DNA of 10,963 bases from a virus (lineage: Duplodnaviria; Heunggongvirae; Uroviricota; Caudoviricetes). Shown here in pieces: positions 1 to 10,963 of this stretch. The notes below the pieces were generated by a model. It searched no databases, was not told the origin of the DNA, and saw only the letters and a list, made by a program, of their open reading frames with translations. The translations under genes were made by a program, and so were the position numbers. Location of the stretch: positions 1-10,963 of the IMG/VR virus record IMGVR_UViG_2617270976_000014. One strand, given 5' to 3'. Within the stretch, counting starts at the first letter, position 1, and every line of letters begins with the position of its first letter.

Positions 1-1734
1 ATGAAAGAAAAAAAATTCGTTAGTGAGCTTTTCCTTGAAAATGGGCAGTTTATTTTAGTCGGTTTGACAGGTCGAACTGGTTCTGGTTGCACAACAACAG
101 CTAATATTCTTGAAAACGAAAAAACAGTCTTCCCTGATGTAAGTAAATTACAGGGGTTTTACAAGGGATTGGATGTCCATCGTTATAATATAGTTAAAAA
201 ATTCGCAGAAAATCACTGGGAAAATTTTTACTCAATTAAGGTGAGTGACCTAATCTCAGCGTATCTTCTGATGTTAACAGTTGAGGAAGCTTCTGAATTC
301 ATTCTATCATCTAATAAATTTATCAGTAAAGAGCATTTAGATATTGTATTAACTTTTGGTGTATTCTCAGATAATCTCATTTTGACAAGATTTAAAAATG
401 TAATTGAGAATTTGCTTGATCATAATAGTGAATTGAAGTTTGATAAAAAAACGATTAATAAATTTATATCAATTTTGAAGTTAGTTAGAAAATTTACTAA
501 AGAATTCAAAGCTGAACTAAATGAGATAAACTCAAATTTATATGTTTCAGCCTATCAGTTAGCAGGTAAGTCAATTAGACGTCGTGGGCGTATTGAAGTC
601 GATTTTGAAGATAAAGAGTTTATGCCTAAATCTGTTTTTCATTTGCCGGAAACTATTAATAGGGTTATTAAATTAATAAGAAAAAGCAAAAGAGATAACG
701 CATTAATTGTCATAGATGCTATTAGAAATCCATATGAGGCAAAATTTTTTAAGGATAGATATTCTGCATTTCATTTAATGTCAATAAATGCCCCAGATGA
801 ACATCGAACAAACTATTTGCGGAAACTACATAAGTTTTCAGAAAAGCAGATAGAGGAAATAGATTCTGTAGAGTCAGGTAAAGGTGATAACTCTTACAAA
901 CATCTCACCAATCCAAATGTAACTAAATGTATTGAACTATCAGATATACACATTTTTAACCCAAAAAATGAATTTGATAATGACAATATTTTAAAAGCAC
1001 AATTAGCGTGGTACATCGCACTGATGAAGCATCCTGGTCTGATAACACCTACTGCAATGGAAAGGGTTATGCAAGTTGCGTATACGGTAAAATTAAACTC
1101 TGGCTGTATATCTAGACAGGTGGGAGCTGTAGTAACTGATGGTGATAATTCAATAAAATCAGTTGGTTGGAATGATGTTGCCAACGGTCAGATTCCTTGC
1201 TCTATGAGATCTCTAGATGGCCTAATGAACGATTTTGATGAAAAAACGTACAGTCATTATGAGAGAAATAATAGTTCTTTCAGAATTAAAGCTAATGAGA
1301 AACTCTTAAATTTTAGGGCGATAGATAAAACTGGTGATATTTATAGAGGCAGGAACTTATCTTATTGTTTTAAAGATATACATAATGATCTTGATAAAGA
1401 GAAAAAAGGTAATCAAGTTCATACACGTGCATTACATGCTGAGGAAAACGCATTTTTACAACTTGCAAAATATGGTGGTATTGGCGTTCTGGGGGGGAAG
1501 TTGTATACAACTGCCAGTCCCTGTGAGTTGTGTGCGAAAAAAGCTTATCAGTTAGGTATATCTGAAATTGTATTTATTGATCCCTACCCAGGTATAGCTC
1601 AAGACCATATTATTAATATAGGTAGTAAGCCACCAAAGTTAATACAATTTAGAGGCGCAATTGGGAAGTCATATCACCGACTTTATGAGCAAATTATCCC
1701 GATAAAAGATGAGTTAGAATATCTCCTTGAGTAG
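1..1734 (+). CDS. P-loop kinase-like / cytidine (dCMP) deaminase fusion protein, AvcD/DcdV-type dCTP-deaminase antiphage protein-like (577 aa)
   Basis: Uninterrupted 577-codon ORF starting ATG at 1, stop TAG 1732-1734. N-terminal glycine-rich loop GLTGRTGSGCTT (Walker-A-like, Cys where the Lys is expected). C-terminal zinc-deaminase signature HAEENA...PCELC (HxE plus PCxxC). About 30% GC, unlike the adjacent prophage. Upstream region lies outside the window. Confidence 0.7.
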   Translation: MKEKKFVSELFLENGQFILVGLTGRTGSGCTTTANILENEKTVFPDVSKLQGFYKGLDVHRYNIVKKFAENHWENFYSIKVSDLISAYLLMLTVEEASEFILSSNKFISKEHLDIVLTFGVFSDNLILTRFKNVIENLLDHNSELKFDKKTINKFISILKLVRKFTKEFKAELNEINSNLYVSAYQLAGKSIRRRGRIEVDFEDKEFMPKSVFHLPETINRVIKLIRKSKRDNALIVIDAIRNPYEAKFFKDRYSAFHLMSINAPDEHRTNYLRKLHKFSEKQIEEIDSVESGKGDNSYKHLTNPNVTKCIELSDIHIFNPKNEFDNDNILKAQLAWYIALMKHPGLITPTAMERVMQVAYTVKLNSGCISRQVGAVVTDGDNSIKSVGWNDVANGQIPCSMRSLDGLMNDFDEKTYSHYERNNSSFRIKANEKLLNFRAIDKTGDIYRGRNLSYCFKDIHNDLDKEKKGNQVHTRALHAEENAFLQLAKYGGIGVLGGKLYTTASPCELCAKKAYQLGISEIVFIDPYPGIAQDHIINIGSKPPKLIQFRGAIGKSYHRLYEQIIPIKDELEYLLE

Positions 1735-2114: not shown

Positions 2115-3131
2115 CTATCTTAAGTTGCATAAAGGGTTTTTAGTTACCGCATCTTCAAGGTGATCGGGCGAAAAGTGGGCGTAAATCATCGTCATTTTTA
2201 TATCGGCATGGCCCAGAATATCGCGCAGCACCAGTATGTTTCCGCCATTCATCATAAAATGGCTGGCGAATGTATGACGTAGCACGTGAGTGCATTGGCC
2301 CTCTGGCAGCTCGATGCCAGCTCGCTTTACTGCTCGTTCAAAGGCTTTTCTGCACGGGGTGAATAGCTTCCCTCTGTTCTTGGGGAGTTCGTCATACAGA
2401 TCTTGAGATATCGGCACGGTGCGGTTTTTCTTACCCTTCGTCTTGGTATAAGTGATGCGGTATTTAGATAACTGATGGCCCTGCAGGTTTTCAGCTTCAC
2501 TCCAGCGTGCGCCGGTGGCCAGGCATATTTTTGCAATCAAAAGCAGACTGGGGTTTTGAGAATCAGCGCAGGCATCTAGCAGACGTTTAATTTCTTCCGA
2601 GGTCAGGAACGCCAGTTCCCCCTCAGCGATTTTAAATGTTGGCAGCCCGGCGAGAGGATTTGGTGCTGACCAGTGGCCTAGTTTTTTCAATGTGCCGAAA
2701 ACCGATGATAGGTTACGTTGCTCAAGATTCACCGTGCGTGGTTTTACTGGCGACATTAGTGTGCCGTCTTCGTTACGAACGTCACCTTTTAACCGTGCTT
2801 CGCGGTATTTCGTAAAGTCACCGGCTGTCAGTTCTGAGGCGATGGGGTCGCCTAGACCATTACAGATAATTCTAAGTTTCGCCATGAGGCGCTTGGGGTC
2901 TGCGAGTGTCTGACCATACAGGGAATACCAAAGCTCAATTAATTCTGATAGGCGTCGCCGATCATCCTTTTCACCCAACCACGGTTTTTTATTCACTTCT
3001 TCCATTGTGAAGCTTTCAAAAGCAATGGCTTCGCCTTTCGTAGCAAATTGCTTACGCACGCGCTTACCATTGCGTCCATTGGGATAGCACTCACACAACC
3101 ATTTTCCGTTCGGCTGTTTTCTGATGGTCAT
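2115..3131 (-). CDS. int: Tyrosine recombinase, P2/186-family phage integrase (338 aa)
   Basis: N-terminus MTIRKQPNGKW...YPNGRNGKRVRKQF is P2-family-like. C-terminal catalytic residues in context: ATGARWSE (Arg), HVLRHTFAS (His-x-x-Arg), MIYAHF (Tyr). Its start lies 1 nt after the stop of the upstream repressor gene (TGA-T-ATG on the minus strand). Confidence 0.9.
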   Translation of the reverse strand: MTIRKQPNGKWLCECYPNGRNGKRVRKQFATKGEAIAFESFTMEEVNKKPWLGEKDDRRRLSELIELWYSLYGQTLADPKRLMAKLRIICNGLGDPIASELTAGDFTKYREARLKGDVRNEDGTLMSPVKPRTVNLEQRNLSSVFGTLKKLGHWSAPNPLAGLPTFKIAEGELAFLTSEEIKRLLDACADSQNPSLLLIAKICLATGARWSEAENLQGHQLSKYRITYTKTKGKKNRTVPISQDLYDELPKNRGKLFTPCRKAFERAVKRAGIELPEGQCTHVLRHTFASHFMMNGGNILVLRDILGHADIKMTMIYAHFSPDHLEDAVTKNPLCNLR

Positions 3132-3132
3132 A

Positions 3133-3765
3133 TCAAAGGCTCTTAATGATTTTCAGTGCGCGGCCTACTACCTCAATGTCATCTAGGCCACACTCAAACG
3201 ATGAATCATCCTGATGCACTACTAATTTGTTTCCCGGAAGTCGAGTCAATTTAACAATGCTTTTTATCCCGTCAATATCGACTAACCACATACCATTTAC
3301 TGGTGGTGTTTGGTTGCGATCTATTAAATAAGAATCACCAGAAGTAGTCACCAGCAGTAGGTTGCTTGAGTCTGAGGGGAGTATGCTGCTATCAATGATT
3401 GCTTTTCCAGCATCGACCAATAAACCACCGTTGAGAGTCGCCTTGTCAATTTCAGGAGATACTAGTTCAGAAAGAGGTACAACCTTGCTGGAGTTCACGG
3501 AATTGATATTTTTTTTAGGTTCAATGTTTGGACCTGGCTCCCCCTGTCCGGTGGTTAGCCACAGTAAAGAAACTCCTGTTTCCAAGGCGCACTGAATCAC
3601 CCACTCTGCAGGAAAACTATCTCTTAAGTATCTGTTTGCCATGGTGCTTTTTGATGCGCCTAAGTGATCGCAAAGTTGCTGTCTGGACTTGAAATCATAG
3701 GCTGCCATTAGTCTATGGATAGCCTCTCTTCCCCCTGTATTCTCTCCAACCTTTACCTGTATCAT
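3133..3765 (-). CDS. cI: CI-type immunity repressor, phage 186-like (210 aa)
   Basis: Sits directly upstream of int on the same strand and divergent from the early operon. HTH-like segment SRQQLCDHLGASKSTMANRYL near the N-terminus. Size and position match 186 CI. Confidence 0.7.
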   Translation of the reverse strand: MIQVKVGENTGGREAIHRLMAAYDFKSRQQLCDHLGASKSTMANRYLRDSFPAEWVIQCALETGVSLLWLTTGQGEPGPNIEPKKNINSVNSSKVVPLSELVSPEIDKATLNGGLLVDAGKAIIDSSILPSDSSNLLLVTTSGDSYLIDRNQTPPVNGMWLVDIDGIKSIVKLTRLPGNKLVVHQDDSSFECGLDDIEVVGRALKIIKSL

Positions 3766-5710: not shown

Positions 5711-6564
5711 GCACCATCCTGAAATGGGCGGGAAATAAAACCGCCATTATGTCCGAACTGAAAAAACACCTTCCTGCTGGCCCGCGACTGGTTGAACCTT
5801 TCGCGGGTTCCTGTGCTGTGATGATGGAGACGGATTACCCCAGCTATCTTGTTGCGGATATTAATCCTGATTTAATCAACCTCTATAAAAAGGTTGCTGC
5901 TGATTGTGAGGCATTTATATCTCGTGCCAGAGCTTTATTTGAGGAAGCAAACAGGGAGGTGGCTTATTACAACATAAGGCAGGAGTTTAATTACTCCACT
6001 GAAATTACTGATTTCATGAAAGCGGTATATTTTCTGTATCTCAATCGTCATGGTTACCGTGGGTTATGTCGCTATAACAAGAGCGGGTATTTCAACATTC
6101 CCTACGGTAATTATAAAAATCCGTATTTCCCTGAAAAAGAAATTCGCGCATTTGCAGAGAAAGCCCAGCGGGCAACGTTTATCTGCGCCAGCTTTGATGA
6201 AACGCTGGCGATGTTGAAGGCGGGGGATGTGGTGTATTGCGATCCGCCGTATGACGGCACGTTTTCCGGTTATCACACTGACGGCTTCACTGAAGATGAC
6301 CAGTATCACCTGGCATCCGTTCTTGAACATCGGTCATCAGAAGGACATCCGGTCATTGTTTCTAACAGTGACACATCCCTGATCCGTTCGCTGTATCGCA
6401 ATTTTACTCACCACTACATCAAGGCAAAACGCAGCATCGGCGTAGCAGCTGGTGAGAGTAAATCTGCAACAGAAATCATCGCTGTTTCTGGGGCGCGCTG
6501 CTGGGTGGGATTTGATCCTTCGCGTGGCGTGGATAGTTCTGCCGTGTACGGAGTGCGTGCATGA
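5707..6564 (+). CDS. dam: DNA N6-adenine methyltransferase, Dam family (285 aa)
   Basis: N-terminal ILKWAGNK, AdoMet-binding EPFAGSCAV and catalytic DPPY (VYCDPPYDG) motifs; start ATG overlaps the upstream stop (ATGA) and its stop overlaps the start of gene A. Confidence 0.85.
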
Positions 6565-8975
6565 GCCATGCTGATATGAACAACTGCAGCGGCTTTAACG
6601 AGGCCGCCGCAGCATTCTCATGGGACAGCCCGAAAAAGGCTATTAACCCTTATCTGGATCCGGCAGAAGTTGCGCCGGTTTCTGCGCTTTCAAACCTGAT
6701 CACTCTGTACGCTGCCGATAACGAGCAGGAACAACTGCGCCGCGAGGCACTCAGTGATCAGGTCTGGGAGCGTTATTTCTTTAATGAATCCCGTGATCCT
6801 GTCCAGCGCGAAATGGAGCAGGATAAGCTCATTAGCCGGGCAAAGCTGGCGCATGAGCAGCAGCGTTTTAATCCGGATATGGTCATTCTGGCGGACGTCA
6901 ACGCCCAGCCTTCCCATATCAGCAAGCCGCTGATGCAACGTATTGAATACTTCAGCAGCCTGGGCAGGCCAAAGGCTTATTCCCGCTATTTGCGTGAGAC
7001 GATTAAGCCATGTCTGGAACGACTGGAGCATGTACGCGAGAGTCAGCTATCCACTTCTTTTCGCTTTATGGCAAGCCATGAAGGGCTGGACGGCCTGCTG
7101 ATCCTGCCTGAAATGAGTCAGGATCATGTGAAACGCCTGTCCACCCTGGTAGCTGCGCATATGAGCATGTGCCTTGATGCAGCTTGTGGCGATTTGTATG
7201 CCACCGATGACGTTAAGCCAGAAGAAATCCGCAAGACATGGGAAAAGGTGGCGGCGGAAACCCTGCGTCTGGATGTCATCCCACCTGCGTTTGAGCAACT
7301 CCGTCGGAAAAGAAACCGCCGTAAACCCGTGCCCTATGAACTCATTCCGGGTTCGCTGGCGCGTATGTTGTGCGGCGACTGGTGGTATCGGAAATTATGG
7401 AAGATGCGTTGCGAATGGCGGGAAGAGCAGTTGCGCGCTGTTTGCCTGGTCAGCAAAAAAGCATCTCCTTATGTCAGCTATGAAGCCGTGATGCATAAAC
7501 GTGAGCAGCGCCGTAAGTCGCTGGAGTTTTTCCGTTCTCATGAACTGGTGAACGAAGACGGCGACACGCTGGACATGGAGGATGTGGTAAACGCCAGCAG
7601 CAGCAACCCTGTGCATCGCCGCAATGAGATGATGGCCTGTGTTAAAGGTCTGGAGCTTATCGCGGAAATGCGCGGTGACTGCGCCGTTTTCTACACTATC
7701 ACCTGTCCGTCGCGTTTCCATTCCACGCTAAATAACGGCAGACCAAACCCGACCTGGACAAACGCGACGGTAAGACAAAGCAGCGATTATCTGGTCGGCA
7801 TGTTTGCTGCATTTCGTAAGGCGATGCACAAAGCCGGGTTGCGCTGGTATGGCGTGCGGGTGGCTGAGCCGCATCATGACGGCACAGTTCACTGGCACCT
7901 GTTGTGTTTCATGCGCAAAAAAGACCGCCGTGCCATCACTGCATTACTGCGTAAGTTTGCCACCCGTGAAGACCGCGAGGAGCTGGGCAATAACACTGGG
8001 CCGCGCTTTAAGTCTGAGTTGATTAACCCGCGCAAAGGAACGCCGACAAGCTACATCGCGAAATATATCAGTAAGAACATTGACGGTCGTGGTCTGGCTG
8101 GCGAGATCAGCAAGGAAACGGGTAAATCTCTGCGTGATAACGCTGAATACGTGAATGCCTGGGCGTCTCTGCATCGTGTTCAGCAATTCCGCTTCTTTGG
8201 TATTCCGGGGCGTCAGGCTTACCGTGAACTTCGCTTGCTGGCTGGTCAGGCGGCAAGGCAACAGGGTGACAAAAAAGTAGGTGCGCCGGTACTGGATAAC
8301 CCGCGTCTTGATGCCATTCTGGCTGCTGCTGATGCTGGTTGTTTTGCCACCTACATCATGAAGCAGGGCGGCGTACTGGTTCCCCGTAAATATCACCTCA
8401 TCAGAACCGCTTATGAAATCAACGAAGAGCCGACCGCCTATGGCGATCACGGCATTCGTATTTATGGCATCTGGTCACCCATTGCAGAGGGCAAGATCTG
8501 CACTCATGCAGTGAAGTGGAAAATGGTTCGTAAAGCCGTTGACGTTCAGGAGGCGGCAGCCGACCAGGGCGCTTGCGCCCCTTGGACTCGTGGCAATAAC
8601 TGTCCCCTTGCTGAAAATTTGAACCAACAAGGGAAAGACAAATCAGCTGATGGGGATACCAGGACGGACATTACCCGCATGGATGACAAGGAGTTGCACG
8701 ATTACCTGCACAGTATGAGCAAAAAAGAGCGCCGGGAACTGGCTGCAAGGTTACGCCTGGTGAAACCGAAACGGCGTAAAGACTACAAACAGCGAATTAC
8801 AGACCATCAGCGACAGCAGCTCGTCTATGAACTGAAGTCCAGAGGATTTAATGGCAGCGAGAAAGAGGTCGATTTACTCCTTCGCGGCGGCAGTATTCCG
8901 TCAGGAGCAGGCCTGCGTATCTTCTATCGGAACCAGCGTTTGCAGGAAGATGATAAGTGGCGAAACCTGTATTAA
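6561..8975 (+). CDS. A: Rolling-circle replication initiator endonuclease, P2/186 gpA family (804 aa)
   Basis: HUH motif (TVHWHLLCF) and paired catalytic tyrosines ([11 protein letters not shown]); size and position after the early genes match P2 A. Confidence 0.85.
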
Positions 8976-9067
8976 TTACGCGGGTTAACAATTCGTGCTC
9001 TTAATAATACCAGGCATATCAGGCTAATGAACGTAAAAAAACGTTTTACATCAGTAAGATTATTATA

Positions 9068-9087
9068 TACTGTAAATATAAACAGTG
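9068..9087 (+). promoter_or_regulatory. LexA (SOS) box TACTGTAAATATAAACAGTG
   Basis: CTGT-N8-ACAG with an AT-rich spacer, close to the consensus TACTGTATATATATACAGTA; lies 41 nt upstream of the ATG at 9129 and overlaps plausible -10 hexamers. Confidence 0.6.
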
Positions 9088-9128
9088 GTTATGCATACAG
9101 TATTGCTTGTGGTGTCATAGGAGGAAAG

Positions 9129-9317
9129 ATGCAGGACTATTTTTTGGAGTCTTTGAAGCTCCAGCGCATTGATTTTTTTCTTAAGCTTGTAGCGGCTAGT
9201 GAGTGTAGTGATGAAGAGAAGGGGCTGGCTTTGCAGTGGGTTTCTGAACTGACAGATGAACTCATGGCAAAAATCAGAACCCACGAATACAACCGCTCAA
9301 TGGATGTCATCAGCTGA
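9129..9317 (+). CDS. Small SOS-controlled protein (62 aa), possible Tum-like antirepressor
   Basis: Strong RBS AGGAGG before the ATG at 9129; LexA box just upstream; the position after A and next to a DinI-like gene mirrors 186 tum. No sequence match to Tum could be verified by eye. Confidence 0.4.
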   Translation: MQDYFLESLKLQRIDFFLKLVAASECSDEEKGLALQWVSELTDELMAKIRTHEYNRSMDVIS

Positions 9318-9327
9318 GGTGACCTTT

Positions 9328-9561
9328 ATGCGCATTGAAATAATGATCGATAAAGAGCAGAAGATTAGCCAGTCTACCCTGGACGCCCTTGAATCCGAGC
9401 TTTACCGCAATCTGCGCCCCCTGTATCCCAAAACGGTAATTCGCATCCGCAAAGGTAGCTCTAACGGTGTGGAACTGACCGGACTGCAACTGGACGAAGA
9501 AAGAAAACAAGTGATGAAGATTATGCAGAAGGTGTGGGAAGACGACAGCTGGCTGCATTAA
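9328..9561 (+). CDS. dinI: DinI-family protein (77 aa)
   Basis: MRIEIMIDKEQ...DALESEL...IMQKVWEDDSWL aligns by eye with E. coli DinI (MRIEV...DALAGEL...ILQETWESADDW); RBS GAGGTGA upstream. Confidence 0.75.
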   Translation: MRIEIMIDKEQKISQSTLDALESELYRNLRPLYPKTVIRIRKGSSNGVELTGLQLDEERKQVMKIMQKVWEDDSWLH

Positions 9562-9720
9562 GAAAAGTTGCTGGCGTCTGAACTTGGTTCTGGCGTCAGC
9601 AAGGTTGAACAACGAGTACAGTGAGGCGTTAGGTGTGGCGTTTATTTGATGAGTGAACGCCCGTTCTGCGACAGGTTCGGAGATTAAGGTTGAAACTACG
9701 GGCAAAATACCATCTTTTTC

Positions 9721-10146
9721 CTACTTAATTGAGTCCAGTAACAAGTTACAGTTACTCTCATTGTAGAGAGAACGAGCAATTAGTGTTACCTGCTTTCCAT
9801 TCATTCCCGGCTTATCCCATAACACAGCTTCTTGCGACGCCACAAATTCAGCATAATCAATTATGCGTTGTTCGTGATCTGGTTCCTCATAGCCAAAGTA
9901 TGAGAGCGCATCGTTGTAAGCGTGGTAAGCTGCTTTCTGTAATATCTTGATATCGGCTGTAGGTACTTGCTCCGTGTAGCTAGGATCTAATTGTGTGCTA
10001 CTGCCATAGAATGCACATGAAAGGTAAGATATTGATTTCTGTTGAGCTTTAGTTCCTTTCTCATAGTTTTTAGCTGTTACCGCCTGAACAGGGACGCTAA
10101 CAAAGCTTGCAACCAGAATTAAAATTAATACGTAAAAGCTTTTCAT
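9721..10146 (-). CDS. Secreted or periplasmic protein of unknown function (141 aa), likely prophage cargo gene
   Basis: N-terminal signal peptide (MKSFYVLILILVASFVSVPVQA, AxA-type cleavage site, no lipobox Cys); GAGG RBS 7 nt upstream; two Cys in the mature part; about 40% GC; opposite strand to the phage operon, between dinI and the cos-like motif. Confidence 0.6.
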   Translation of the reverse strand: MKSFYVLILILVASFVSVPVQAVTAKNYEKGTKAQQKSISYLSCAFYGSSTQLDPSYTEQVPTADIKILQKAAYHAYNDALSYFGYEEPDHEQRIIDYAEFVASQEAVLWDKPGMNGKQVTLIARSLYNESNCNLLLDSIK

Positions 10147-10419
10147 TTTGACCTCAGCCGAAACGTTAGAGAGACTATCGAAATTTGTAAAACCCGTGGC
10201 GATTCAGTTTGAGATCCTCCCCCTTACATGATTTTTAATCAAATATATGCTTTTGTAAGCATACCTGTTAACCGAATTATTTATTTTTAGAGATCTTCCG
10301 ACATACTGATTATGCCCGCTGAGGAGTTCACCTTGCGTAAAGTCCGATTCGCTTTACTCGTCTGTGCATGTCTATGCTGCATGAGATTGCATGATCGTTT
10401 GAGGATCGTTTTTGCTAAG

Positions 10420-10446
10420 GCCCGCCAGAACTGGCGGGCTTTTGCG
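10420..10446 (+). terminator. Rho-independent terminator (GCCCGCCAG-AA-CTGGCGGGC followed by TTTTGCG)
   Basis: GC-rich inverted repeat (8-9 bp stem) immediately followed by a T-run on the plus strand. Confidence 0.6.
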
Positions 10447-10488
10447 TAGATCATGCTCCTGCATGAAAACCACTACATAAAGCGGGCA

Positions 10489-10507: not shown

Positions 10508-10632
10508 CGCGCGCTCATGGTTGAATTAATGAAATTATGGTGTTAAATAGGCTAGCTTTTTAAGTCGTGAATATTCAATTTTTCAACTCATTTTTTTCAT
10601 AGGGAGGAGTAATTGACATGGTTATGTTAGTG

Positions 10633-10963
10633 GGTGATGCTGCCAACTTACTGATTTAGTGTATGATGGTGTTTTTGAGGTGCTCCAGTGGCTTCTGTTT
10701 CTATCAGCTGTCCCTCCTGTTCAGCTACTGACGGGGTGGTGCGTAACGGCAAAAGCACCGCCGGACATCAGCGCTATCTCTGCTCTCACTGCCGTAAAAC
10801 ATGGCAACTGCAGTTCACTTACACCGCTTCTCAACCCGGTACGCACCAGAAAATCATTGATATGGCCATGAATGGCGTTGGATGCCGGGCAACAGCCCGC
10901 ATTATGGGCGTTGGCCTCAACACGATTTTACGTCACTTAAAAAACTCAGGCCGCAGTCGGTAA
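10633..10963 (+). mobile_element. IS1 insertion sequence, left end (IRL GGTGATGCTGCCAACTTACTGAT) continuing beyond the window
   Basis: Canonical IS1 left inverted repeat at 10633-10655 followed by insA; the window ends at the insA stop, so insB and the IRR are not visible. Confidence 0.9.
10688..10963 (+). CDS. insA: IS1 transposition regulator InsA (91 aa)
   Basis: GTG start; translation [40 protein letters not shown]... matches IS1 InsA as I recall it. Confidence 0.95.

Follow-up and report, generated by a model that had tools for sequence, protein, structure and literature searches.

The split tumA/tumB-type module of an Escherichia coli P2-family prophage is very probably its LexA-controlled SOS-induction operon

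In phage 186, the LexA-controlled Tum protein sequesters the CI immunity repressor and blocks its DNA binding (PMC7708051), and the GenBank record of this phage carries the corresponding note that Tum "inhibits CI DNA binding". The 186 protein is a single 146-aa polypeptide with internal starts that also give the DinI-like part alone, and the short forms are described in the same record as "modulators of SOS induction". In Fels-2 and PSP3, tum is found in two parts and the upstream gene of PSP3 is an antirepressor (PMC3121763); the tumA gene of PSP3 is annotated as "similar to 5' end 186 tum; UV induction of prophage". According to the account of Bunny et al. (2002) given in PMC3121763, the split tum of Fels-2 is what makes a lexA null lethal in LT2. 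The mutagen MX furthermore induces the operon STM2726-2727-2728 of Fels-2 alongside the LexA-regulon genes recA, sulA and umuD, with an increase of 5.5- to 14.8-fold for STM2727 (PMC2225428). In the E. coli HS prophage DuoHS, deletion of "tum" or a lexA(Ind-) allele abolished mitomycin C-induced lysis and virion foci, the host SOS response being still intact in the delta-tum strain (PMC12055606). A more distant parallel is provided by the dinI-gfoA/gftA modules of Gifsy-1, -2 and -3, in which a LexA box likewise governs a dinI homologue and a small antirepressor directed against a non-cleavable repressor (PMC3121763).

We analyzed a window of 10,963 nucleotides, which covers the early part of a P2-family prophage carried by an E. 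coli chromosome; strains E47 and NCTC9038 are 99% identical to it over ~10.6 kb. Directly after the replicase gene, starting at position 9045, lies a short module that we regard, with high confidence, as the operon for SOS induction in a P2-family prophage of the 186/Fels-2 type. The features of the window are the following.

1-1734: anti-phage dCTP deaminase
2115-3131, minus strand: integrase
3133-3765, minus strand: 186-type CI immunity repressor (Pfam Phage_CI_repr PF07022, E 5.4e-31, and Phage_CI_C PF16452, E 5.6e-28)
6561-8975: gpA-type replicase (replicase A)
9045-9073, plus strand: putative SOS operon promoter, counterpart of 186 p95 (-35 TTTACA at 9045-9050, 17-bp spacer, -10 TACTGT at 9068-9073)
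9068-9087, plus strand: predicted LexA operator (SOS box) TACTGTAAATATAAACAGTG, core CTGT-N8-ACAG at 9070-9085
9129-9317, plus strand: tumA-type gene, 62 aa (RBS AGGAGG at 9119-9124, ATG at 9129, TGA at 9315-9317)
9328-9561, plus strand: tumB-type gene of the DinI family, 77 aa (own RBS GAGG at 9316-9319, overlapping the TGA stop of tumA)
9568-9602, plus strand: hairpin of 11 bp plus 4 bp with no U-run, from RNA folding, just 3' of the operon
Cargo region, minus strand: secreted-looking 141-aa ORF, phrog_7437
Cargo region, after the 141-aa ORF: hairpin-plus-T-run element
From 10633, 1.07 kb downstream: IS1, cutting the sixth codon of a DUF4145 gene; the window ends inside IS1

Between CI and the replicase are found apl/cox, cII, fil, small early genes and a Dam methylase gene. 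The resulting order int, 186-type CI, apl/cox, cII, fil, dam, replicase A is that of 186, and the gene order of the window also agrees with those of PSP3, Fels-2 and E. coli HS. The position of the module is shared as well: p95-tum comes after gene A in 186, the DuoHS module follows the replicase gene, and PSP3 carries two genes under a LexA box after gene A. In 186, tum is followed by orf97, which the window lacks. The Gifsy modules depart further from this arrangement, with dinI placed first, antirepressors and repressors unrelated to those of the window, and lambdoid rather than P2-like phages as carriers.

An earlier note, made from the letters of the window, had described a near-consensus LexA box at 9070-9085, a 62-aa ORF with a strong RBS just after it and a DinI-like gene with its own RBS. 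All three were recovered: the core of the box is exact, the 62-aa ORF is preceded by AGGAGG, and the DinI-like gene has a GAGG over the tumA stop. As that note states, the reading frames of the two ORFs differ; the gap between them is 10 nt (9318-9327, from the tumA stop to the next ATG) and not the 11 nt given there, and the start coordinates were also slightly corrected.

The promoter was read from the sequence and assigned by analogy with 186 p95, and is put forward as putative. The annotated p95 promoter consists of TTCACA, an 18-bp spacing and TACTGT, the LexA site enclosing the -10, and its geometry matches that of the window, where the -10 TACTGT coincides with the left arm of the LexA box; both are promoters placed after gene A, LexA-repressed in the case of 186. 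A generic sigma-70 promoter scan left the SOS promoter uncalled because TACTGT fits TATAAT at only 3/6 positions, which falls under the scan threshold. The operator itself, TACTGTAAATATAAACAGTG, agrees with the LexA consensus at 17/20 positions, and when the 20-mer consensus was searched allowing at most 3 mismatches, 9068-9087 was the sole match in the window, with 0 matches in 200 shuffles. The box overlaps the promoter immediately 5' of the first gene of the module. A possible second full LexA box at 9085-9100 was rejected, as only an ACAG half-site is present there.

The box was then compared between phages in an upstream alignment that took in the window, Fels-2, 813R9, PSP3, 186, Yersinia phage 06.16-2 and ENT90. 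These seven diverged phages all share an unchanged TACTGT-N8-ACAGT, and the flanks are largely unalignable between clades; an invariant box amid diverging flanks is the pattern expected of a functional operator. One CTGT-N8-ACAG box is present just 5' of tum or tumA in every locus fetched, and the corresponding site is annotated in the 186 record as a putative LexA binding site. The segment 9043-9093 of the window, comprising promoter and LexA box, is identical to the promoter region of DuoHS.

The first gene of the operon encodes 62 aa, the form called by the NCBI PGAP annotation and by phage records. A 96-aa extended ORF at 9027-9317 was rejected as the gene, its start lying 5' of the -35 and of the LexA box. 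RefSeq and most phage records list the 62-aa gene as a "hypothetical protein"; in one instance it carries the name "levan regulatory protein".

The earlier note had suggested aligning both products to 186 Tum. The 77-aa protein aligned directly (41% identity to residues 71-145), and for the 62-aa protein the relationship emerged only with profiles. Pairwise BLASTP gave nothing between the 62-aa protein and 186 Tum, between the 62-aa protein and PSP3 TumA, or between PSP3 TumA and 186 Tum; the identity of the 62-aa protein to the N-terminal domain of Tum is just ~20%. Against PHROG, the 62-aa ORF matched phrog_698 (E 3.6e-38), phrog_8554 (2.4e-8) and phrog_1993 (2e-3), and residues 1-70 of 186 Tum matched the same families (E 5.9e-6, 3.4e-12 and 1.5e-23, respectively). 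PSP3 TumA belongs to phrog_1993 (2.7e-32), a subfamily other than the phrog_698 of the window, and so does the ENT90 protein. All three families are matched, and bridged, by the "tum protein" of a Yersinia phage (phrog_8554). When a profile built from 28 diverse members of the 62-aa family was compared by hhalign to 186 Tum, it aligned to residues 3-44 with a probability of 94.9% (E 4.5e-8), the shared core being roughly h-x-h-[QE]-R-[IV]-[DE]-h-h-A-[RK]-L ... C ... [DE]-[KR]-E-h-A-L-x-h-h-[AS]-E-h. The direct hhalign comparison to PSP3 TumA was weak (E 0.0039, probability 8.6%). These comparisons point clearly to homology of the 62-aa ORF with the N-terminal, antirepressor domain of Tum, at the profile level only.

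An AlphaFold2 model (pLDDT 88) presents the 62-aa protein as a two-helix hairpin (residues 2-23 and 28-61) whose loop holds the conserved Cys. The ORF had no match in Pfam, NCBIfam or PADLOC, the family profile had no sequence match in the PDB, and no BFVD viral structure matched the model in Foldseek at E <=0.001; a predicted two-helix hairpin is too simple a fold for an informative structure search. The 62-aa gene can be safely annotated as a TumA-type antirepressor.

The second gene supplies a DinI-like moiety as a separate protein after the first gene. Its 77-aa product matches Pfam DinI (PF06183) over the full model, 1-63, with an E-value of 6.6e-23 and 81.3 bits for a cut-off of 24.2, and aligns to the E. 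coli DinI structure 1GHH (E 2.7e-6). It is 78% identical to PSP3 TumB. The score against the host DinI equivalog NCBIfam NF007893 is 42.7 bits, below the cut-off of 111, and the protein is a phage DinI-like paralogue, distinct from the product of chromosomal dinI.

Two loci of known behaviour carry nearly the same module. In DuoHS the 62-aa protein ECHS_RS04495 is identical to that of the window at 61/62 positions and the DinI-like ECHS_RS04500 at 77/77, and the -35, LexA box, -10 and RBS are identical. In Fels-2 the corresponding proteins are STM2728 (62 aa, 98.4% identical) and STM2726.1 (DinI-like, 100%), with a LexA box and the same split into different frames. Differences are seen in the neighbouring genes. 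The CI of the window is 58% identical to that of Fels-2, 44% to that of DuoHS (73% in the N-terminal domain and 34% in the C-terminal domain) and 34% to that of 186; Fels-2 has STM2726 (phrog_1353) downstream where the window has its minus-strand 141-aa ORF, and the downstream cargo of DuoHS differs from that of the window, which contains IS1.

The near-identity with DuoHS bears directly on function. The "tum" deleted in that prophage is given the locus tag ECHS_RS04495 in the supplement of the Phollow study (Nat Microbiol 2025; PMC12055606), and this tag designates a 189-nt "hypothetical protein" gene immediately 5' of the DinI-like ECHS_RS04500. That induction requires LexA cleavage and the 62-aa gene is thus shown elsewhere, in a 98-100% identical copy. 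The DuoHS experiment establishes only that the 62-aa gene is required for induction, CI binding being a separate matter, and transfer of the function to the window assumes that TumA tolerates the divergence between the two CIs (44% identity). The proposal of the earlier note that the locus is a LexA-controlled tum-like SOS module is upheld by the Tum profile homology, the conserved box and the E. coli HS genetics (PMC12055606). Such a module is ordinary and already described, being the standard trigger of 186/Fels-2-type P2-like prophages.

By analogy with these systems, host LexA bound to 9068-9087, where it overlaps the -10 hexamer, would keep the promoter shut in a lysogen. DNA damage would activate RecA and lead to LexA self-cleavage, whereupon the operon would be transcribed. 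The TumA-type two-helix protein would then bind the non-cleavable 186-type CI encoded at 3133-3765 and stop it from binding its operators, and the inactivation of CI would derepress the early lytic promoter and induce the prophage. That the 62-aa protein binds CI directly is something we infer from homology, and the CI of the window is its presumed target from the biochemistry of 186. The TumB-type protein would most likely bind RecA filaments and tune the strength or duration of the SOS response rather than act on CI; this role in RecA/SOS modulation is likewise one that we infer. In the Gifsy prophages, non-polar deletions of dinI were without effect on induction (PMC3121763). If the prophage is otherwise intact, the module predicts that agents damaging DNA, quinolones and mitomycin C among them, would induce it.

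The existence of two ORFs instead of one invites the question, already raised in the earlier note, of whether tum is naturally split here or is a fused 186-like gene that is frameshifted and decaying, or affected by a sequencing error near 9300-9330. The layout itself gives the latter idea some substance, since just 10 nt separate two ORFs whose frames differ, and one phage record, 500465-1, does have frameshifts in the tumA/dinI region (these appear to come from assembly, and the record was left out of the selection analysis). The split nonetheless recurs in phages of Escherichia, Klebsiella, Salmonella and Yersinia (67 records) and in about a fifth of the complete E. coli genomes (1126 of 5426), 1078 of them at a coverage of at least 80%; the same stop, spacer and second RBS are shared by these 1078 genomes, Fels-2, 813R9, E. 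coli HS and many Klebsiella and Salmonella phages. The 62-aa protein has 482 homologues, with lengths of 55-109 aa among the best 120 of these, and a HMMER scan of 1.84 billion cluster representatives retrieved 66 relatives, each representing a cluster at 50% identity, of which 0 were fused to a DinI domain. Both ORFs have dN/dS values of 0-0.11: in pairs among the window, 813R9, Fels-2 and E. coli HS, tumA shows 0-4 synonymous vs 0-2 non-synonymous substitutions and the dinI-like gene 3-6 vs 0, so that both are under purifying selection. PSP3, with an independently diverged pair, also has separate tumA and tumB genes, which share one frame with a stop codon between them, unlike the two genes of the window; the split tum works in E. 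coli HS; and even in 186 an internal GTG start yields a separate DinI-like product (Tum95.5). On the strength of the conserved split and the selection data, the frameshift or pseudogene reading was rejected and is considered very improbable, and of the two options in the earlier note it is the natural split that stands. The module is not a 186 Tum in the strict sense, that is a single 146-aa polypeptide in one frame. Because of the TGA at 9315-9317, the different frames and the lack of fused members among the subfamily proteins retrieved, it is filed under the split tumA/tumB form, and the tum of the window, as judged from these sequences, is a naturally split two-gene version. Still less credible is a fortuitous LexA-like palindrome in front of an operon outside SOS control. 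A second CTGT-N8-ACAG does occur at 1104-1119, inside an unrelated gene, and illustrates that the 8-base core can arise by chance. This does not extend to the 20-mer match, for which 0 were expected, nor to a box that is invariant in diverged phages and placed relative to the -10 as in 186 p95, and a chance origin is difficult to reconcile with the mutagen induction of the Fels-2 operon (PMC2225428) or with the block imposed by lexA(Ind-) on the E. coli HS prophage, which has the identical promoter (PMC12055606).

Granted a naturally split, SOS-regulated operon, the 62-aa protein might be needed for induction and yet act elsewhere than on CI, for instance on CII, Apl or a host factor. The E. 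coli HS paper speaks only of "inhibiting pro-lysogenic regulators" (PMC12055606), the similarity to 186 Tum is remote, and one and the same TumA occurs with CIs of 40-58% overall identity. We nevertheless consider this unlikely, as the profile homology spans the conserved core of the N-terminal domain of Tum, a protein documented in 186 to inhibit DNA binding by CI, antirepressor activity is reported for the upstream gene of PSP3 (PMC3121763), and all partner phages have a CI of 186-type architecture. The CI proteins themselves provide a further argument. One TumA (98-100% identical) accompanies CIs that are 40-95% identical overall, and a comparison among the 8 phages of this TumA type gives identities of 58-98% (mean 69%) for the CI N-terminal domain and 23-95% (mean 37%) for the C-terminal domain. 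Compared to the CIs of phages with other Tum types (186, PSP3, Yersinia and ESSI2), the means are 48% and 31%, respectively, in what is a small and phylogenetically non-independent sample. The N-terminal domains of the TumA-sharing CIs are thus distinctly conserved (mean 69% vs 48%), and this group is set apart by the N-terminal segment SKST[ML]A.R..RD.FPA[DE]W[VI]IQC.LETG. The combination of conserved N-terminal and divergent C-terminal domains suggests the N-terminal domain as the target of TumA, although linkage by recombination could be another source of the pattern. A literature search on the CI domain bound by Tum returned nothing relevant. We tentatively raise the possibility, itself rather doubtful, that TumA recognizes a surface conserved in the DNA-binding N-terminal domain of CI and could cross-induce co-resident heteroimmune P2-like prophages. 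If true, this would be the 186-family counterpart of the "trans-acting antirepressor" crosstalk of the Gifsy prophages; the co-variation of TumA with the CI N-terminal domain offers a testable hypothesis on the binding place of this class of antirepressors.

Downstream of the dinI-like gene, the terminator scan called no canonical intrinsic terminator, leaving the hairpin at 9568-9602 uncalled, and scanning the entire window against Rfam gave no family. The hairpin lies at the position of 186 t95a and may be a weak or partial terminator; the RNA fold across the whole segment containing it has a z-score of only -1.75. Homology to other phages ends at query position 657, corresponding to window position ~9632, after which begins the variable cargo region of P2-like phages. 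The cargo and IS1 leave the SOS module unaffected, and relatives carry other cargo at this position, namely TIR, Ymh or DUF4145 genes.

The gene of the immunity repressor CI in the window (3133-3765) was compared with its counterparts in the comparison phage and genome records L009-L017, L019 and L001. Among phages carrying a near-identical TumA, the mean identity of CI was 69% in the N-terminal domain vs 37% in the C-terminal domain, and the N-terminal domains of phages with other Tum types shared only about 48% identity with those of the TumA-sharing phages. These alignments suggest that it is the N-terminal domain of CI that is recognised by TumA.

The 62-aa TumA-type gene bears the label "hypothetical protein" across RefSeq and phage records, including those of over 1000 E. 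coli genomes, examples being found in the comparison records at the following positions:
L008, 15128-15316
L019, 10620-10808
It is occasionally called "levan regulatory (domain) protein", a name for which we found no support in this analysis. In the RefSeq record of Escherichia phage 500465-1 (L003, NC_049342), tumA carries compensating frameshifts and the dinI-like gene is also frameshifted (both within 3150-3690), and the portal and IS genes are in fragments. These frameshifts and gene fragments seem to stem from faulty assembly and not to be biological.

Beyond the SOS operon and the CI gene, the following features of the window were mapped:
1-1734, plus strand: anti-phage dCTP deaminase of 577 aa (PADLOC dCTPase and NCBIfam NF041025)
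1104-1119: second exact copy of CTGT-N8-ACAG (CTGTATATCTAGACAG), inside the dCTP deaminase coding region
9721-10146, minus strand: ORF of 141 aa (phrog_7437, E 4e-99)
10312-10449, plus strand: cysteine-rich hydrophobic ORF of 45 aa with a terminal hairpin
10633-10963: IS1 part, starting with the left end (GGTGATGCTGCC...)

The 141-aa ORF, convergent to the SOS operon, is a cargo gene of the variable region past dinI. Its product begins with a signal-peptide-like segment and matched nothing in Pfam, NCBIfam or PADLOC searches. The 45-aa ORF ends in a GC-rich hairpin with a T-run behind it (at about 10422-10447, gcccgccagaactggcgggcttttg). A simple terminator scan did not call this hairpin, and an Rfam search returned no family for the region; the element may represent an sRNA terminator or a small gene of toxin-like type. 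A further cargo gene, encoding a DUF4145 protein and starting with an ATG at 10618, is cut after about 5 codons by IS1, whose insA continues to the window edge; the intact gene, devoid of IS1, was found in NZ_OY754453.

The second LexA-like core is probably a chance occurrence; at least two matches to CTGT-N8-ACAG were obtained in just 2 of 200 shuffles. The surrounding dCTP deaminase gene lies just beyond the prophage boundary, at the integrase end, and its product combines an N-terminal P-loop domain with a C-terminal dCMP-deaminase domain (PADLOC match, E 2.1e-145; NF041025 score, 425 bits vs a cut-off of 400). In E. coli E47, the dCTP deaminase gene is flanked by a P2-like prophage and a P4-like satellite carrying psu, delta, SIR2 and int.
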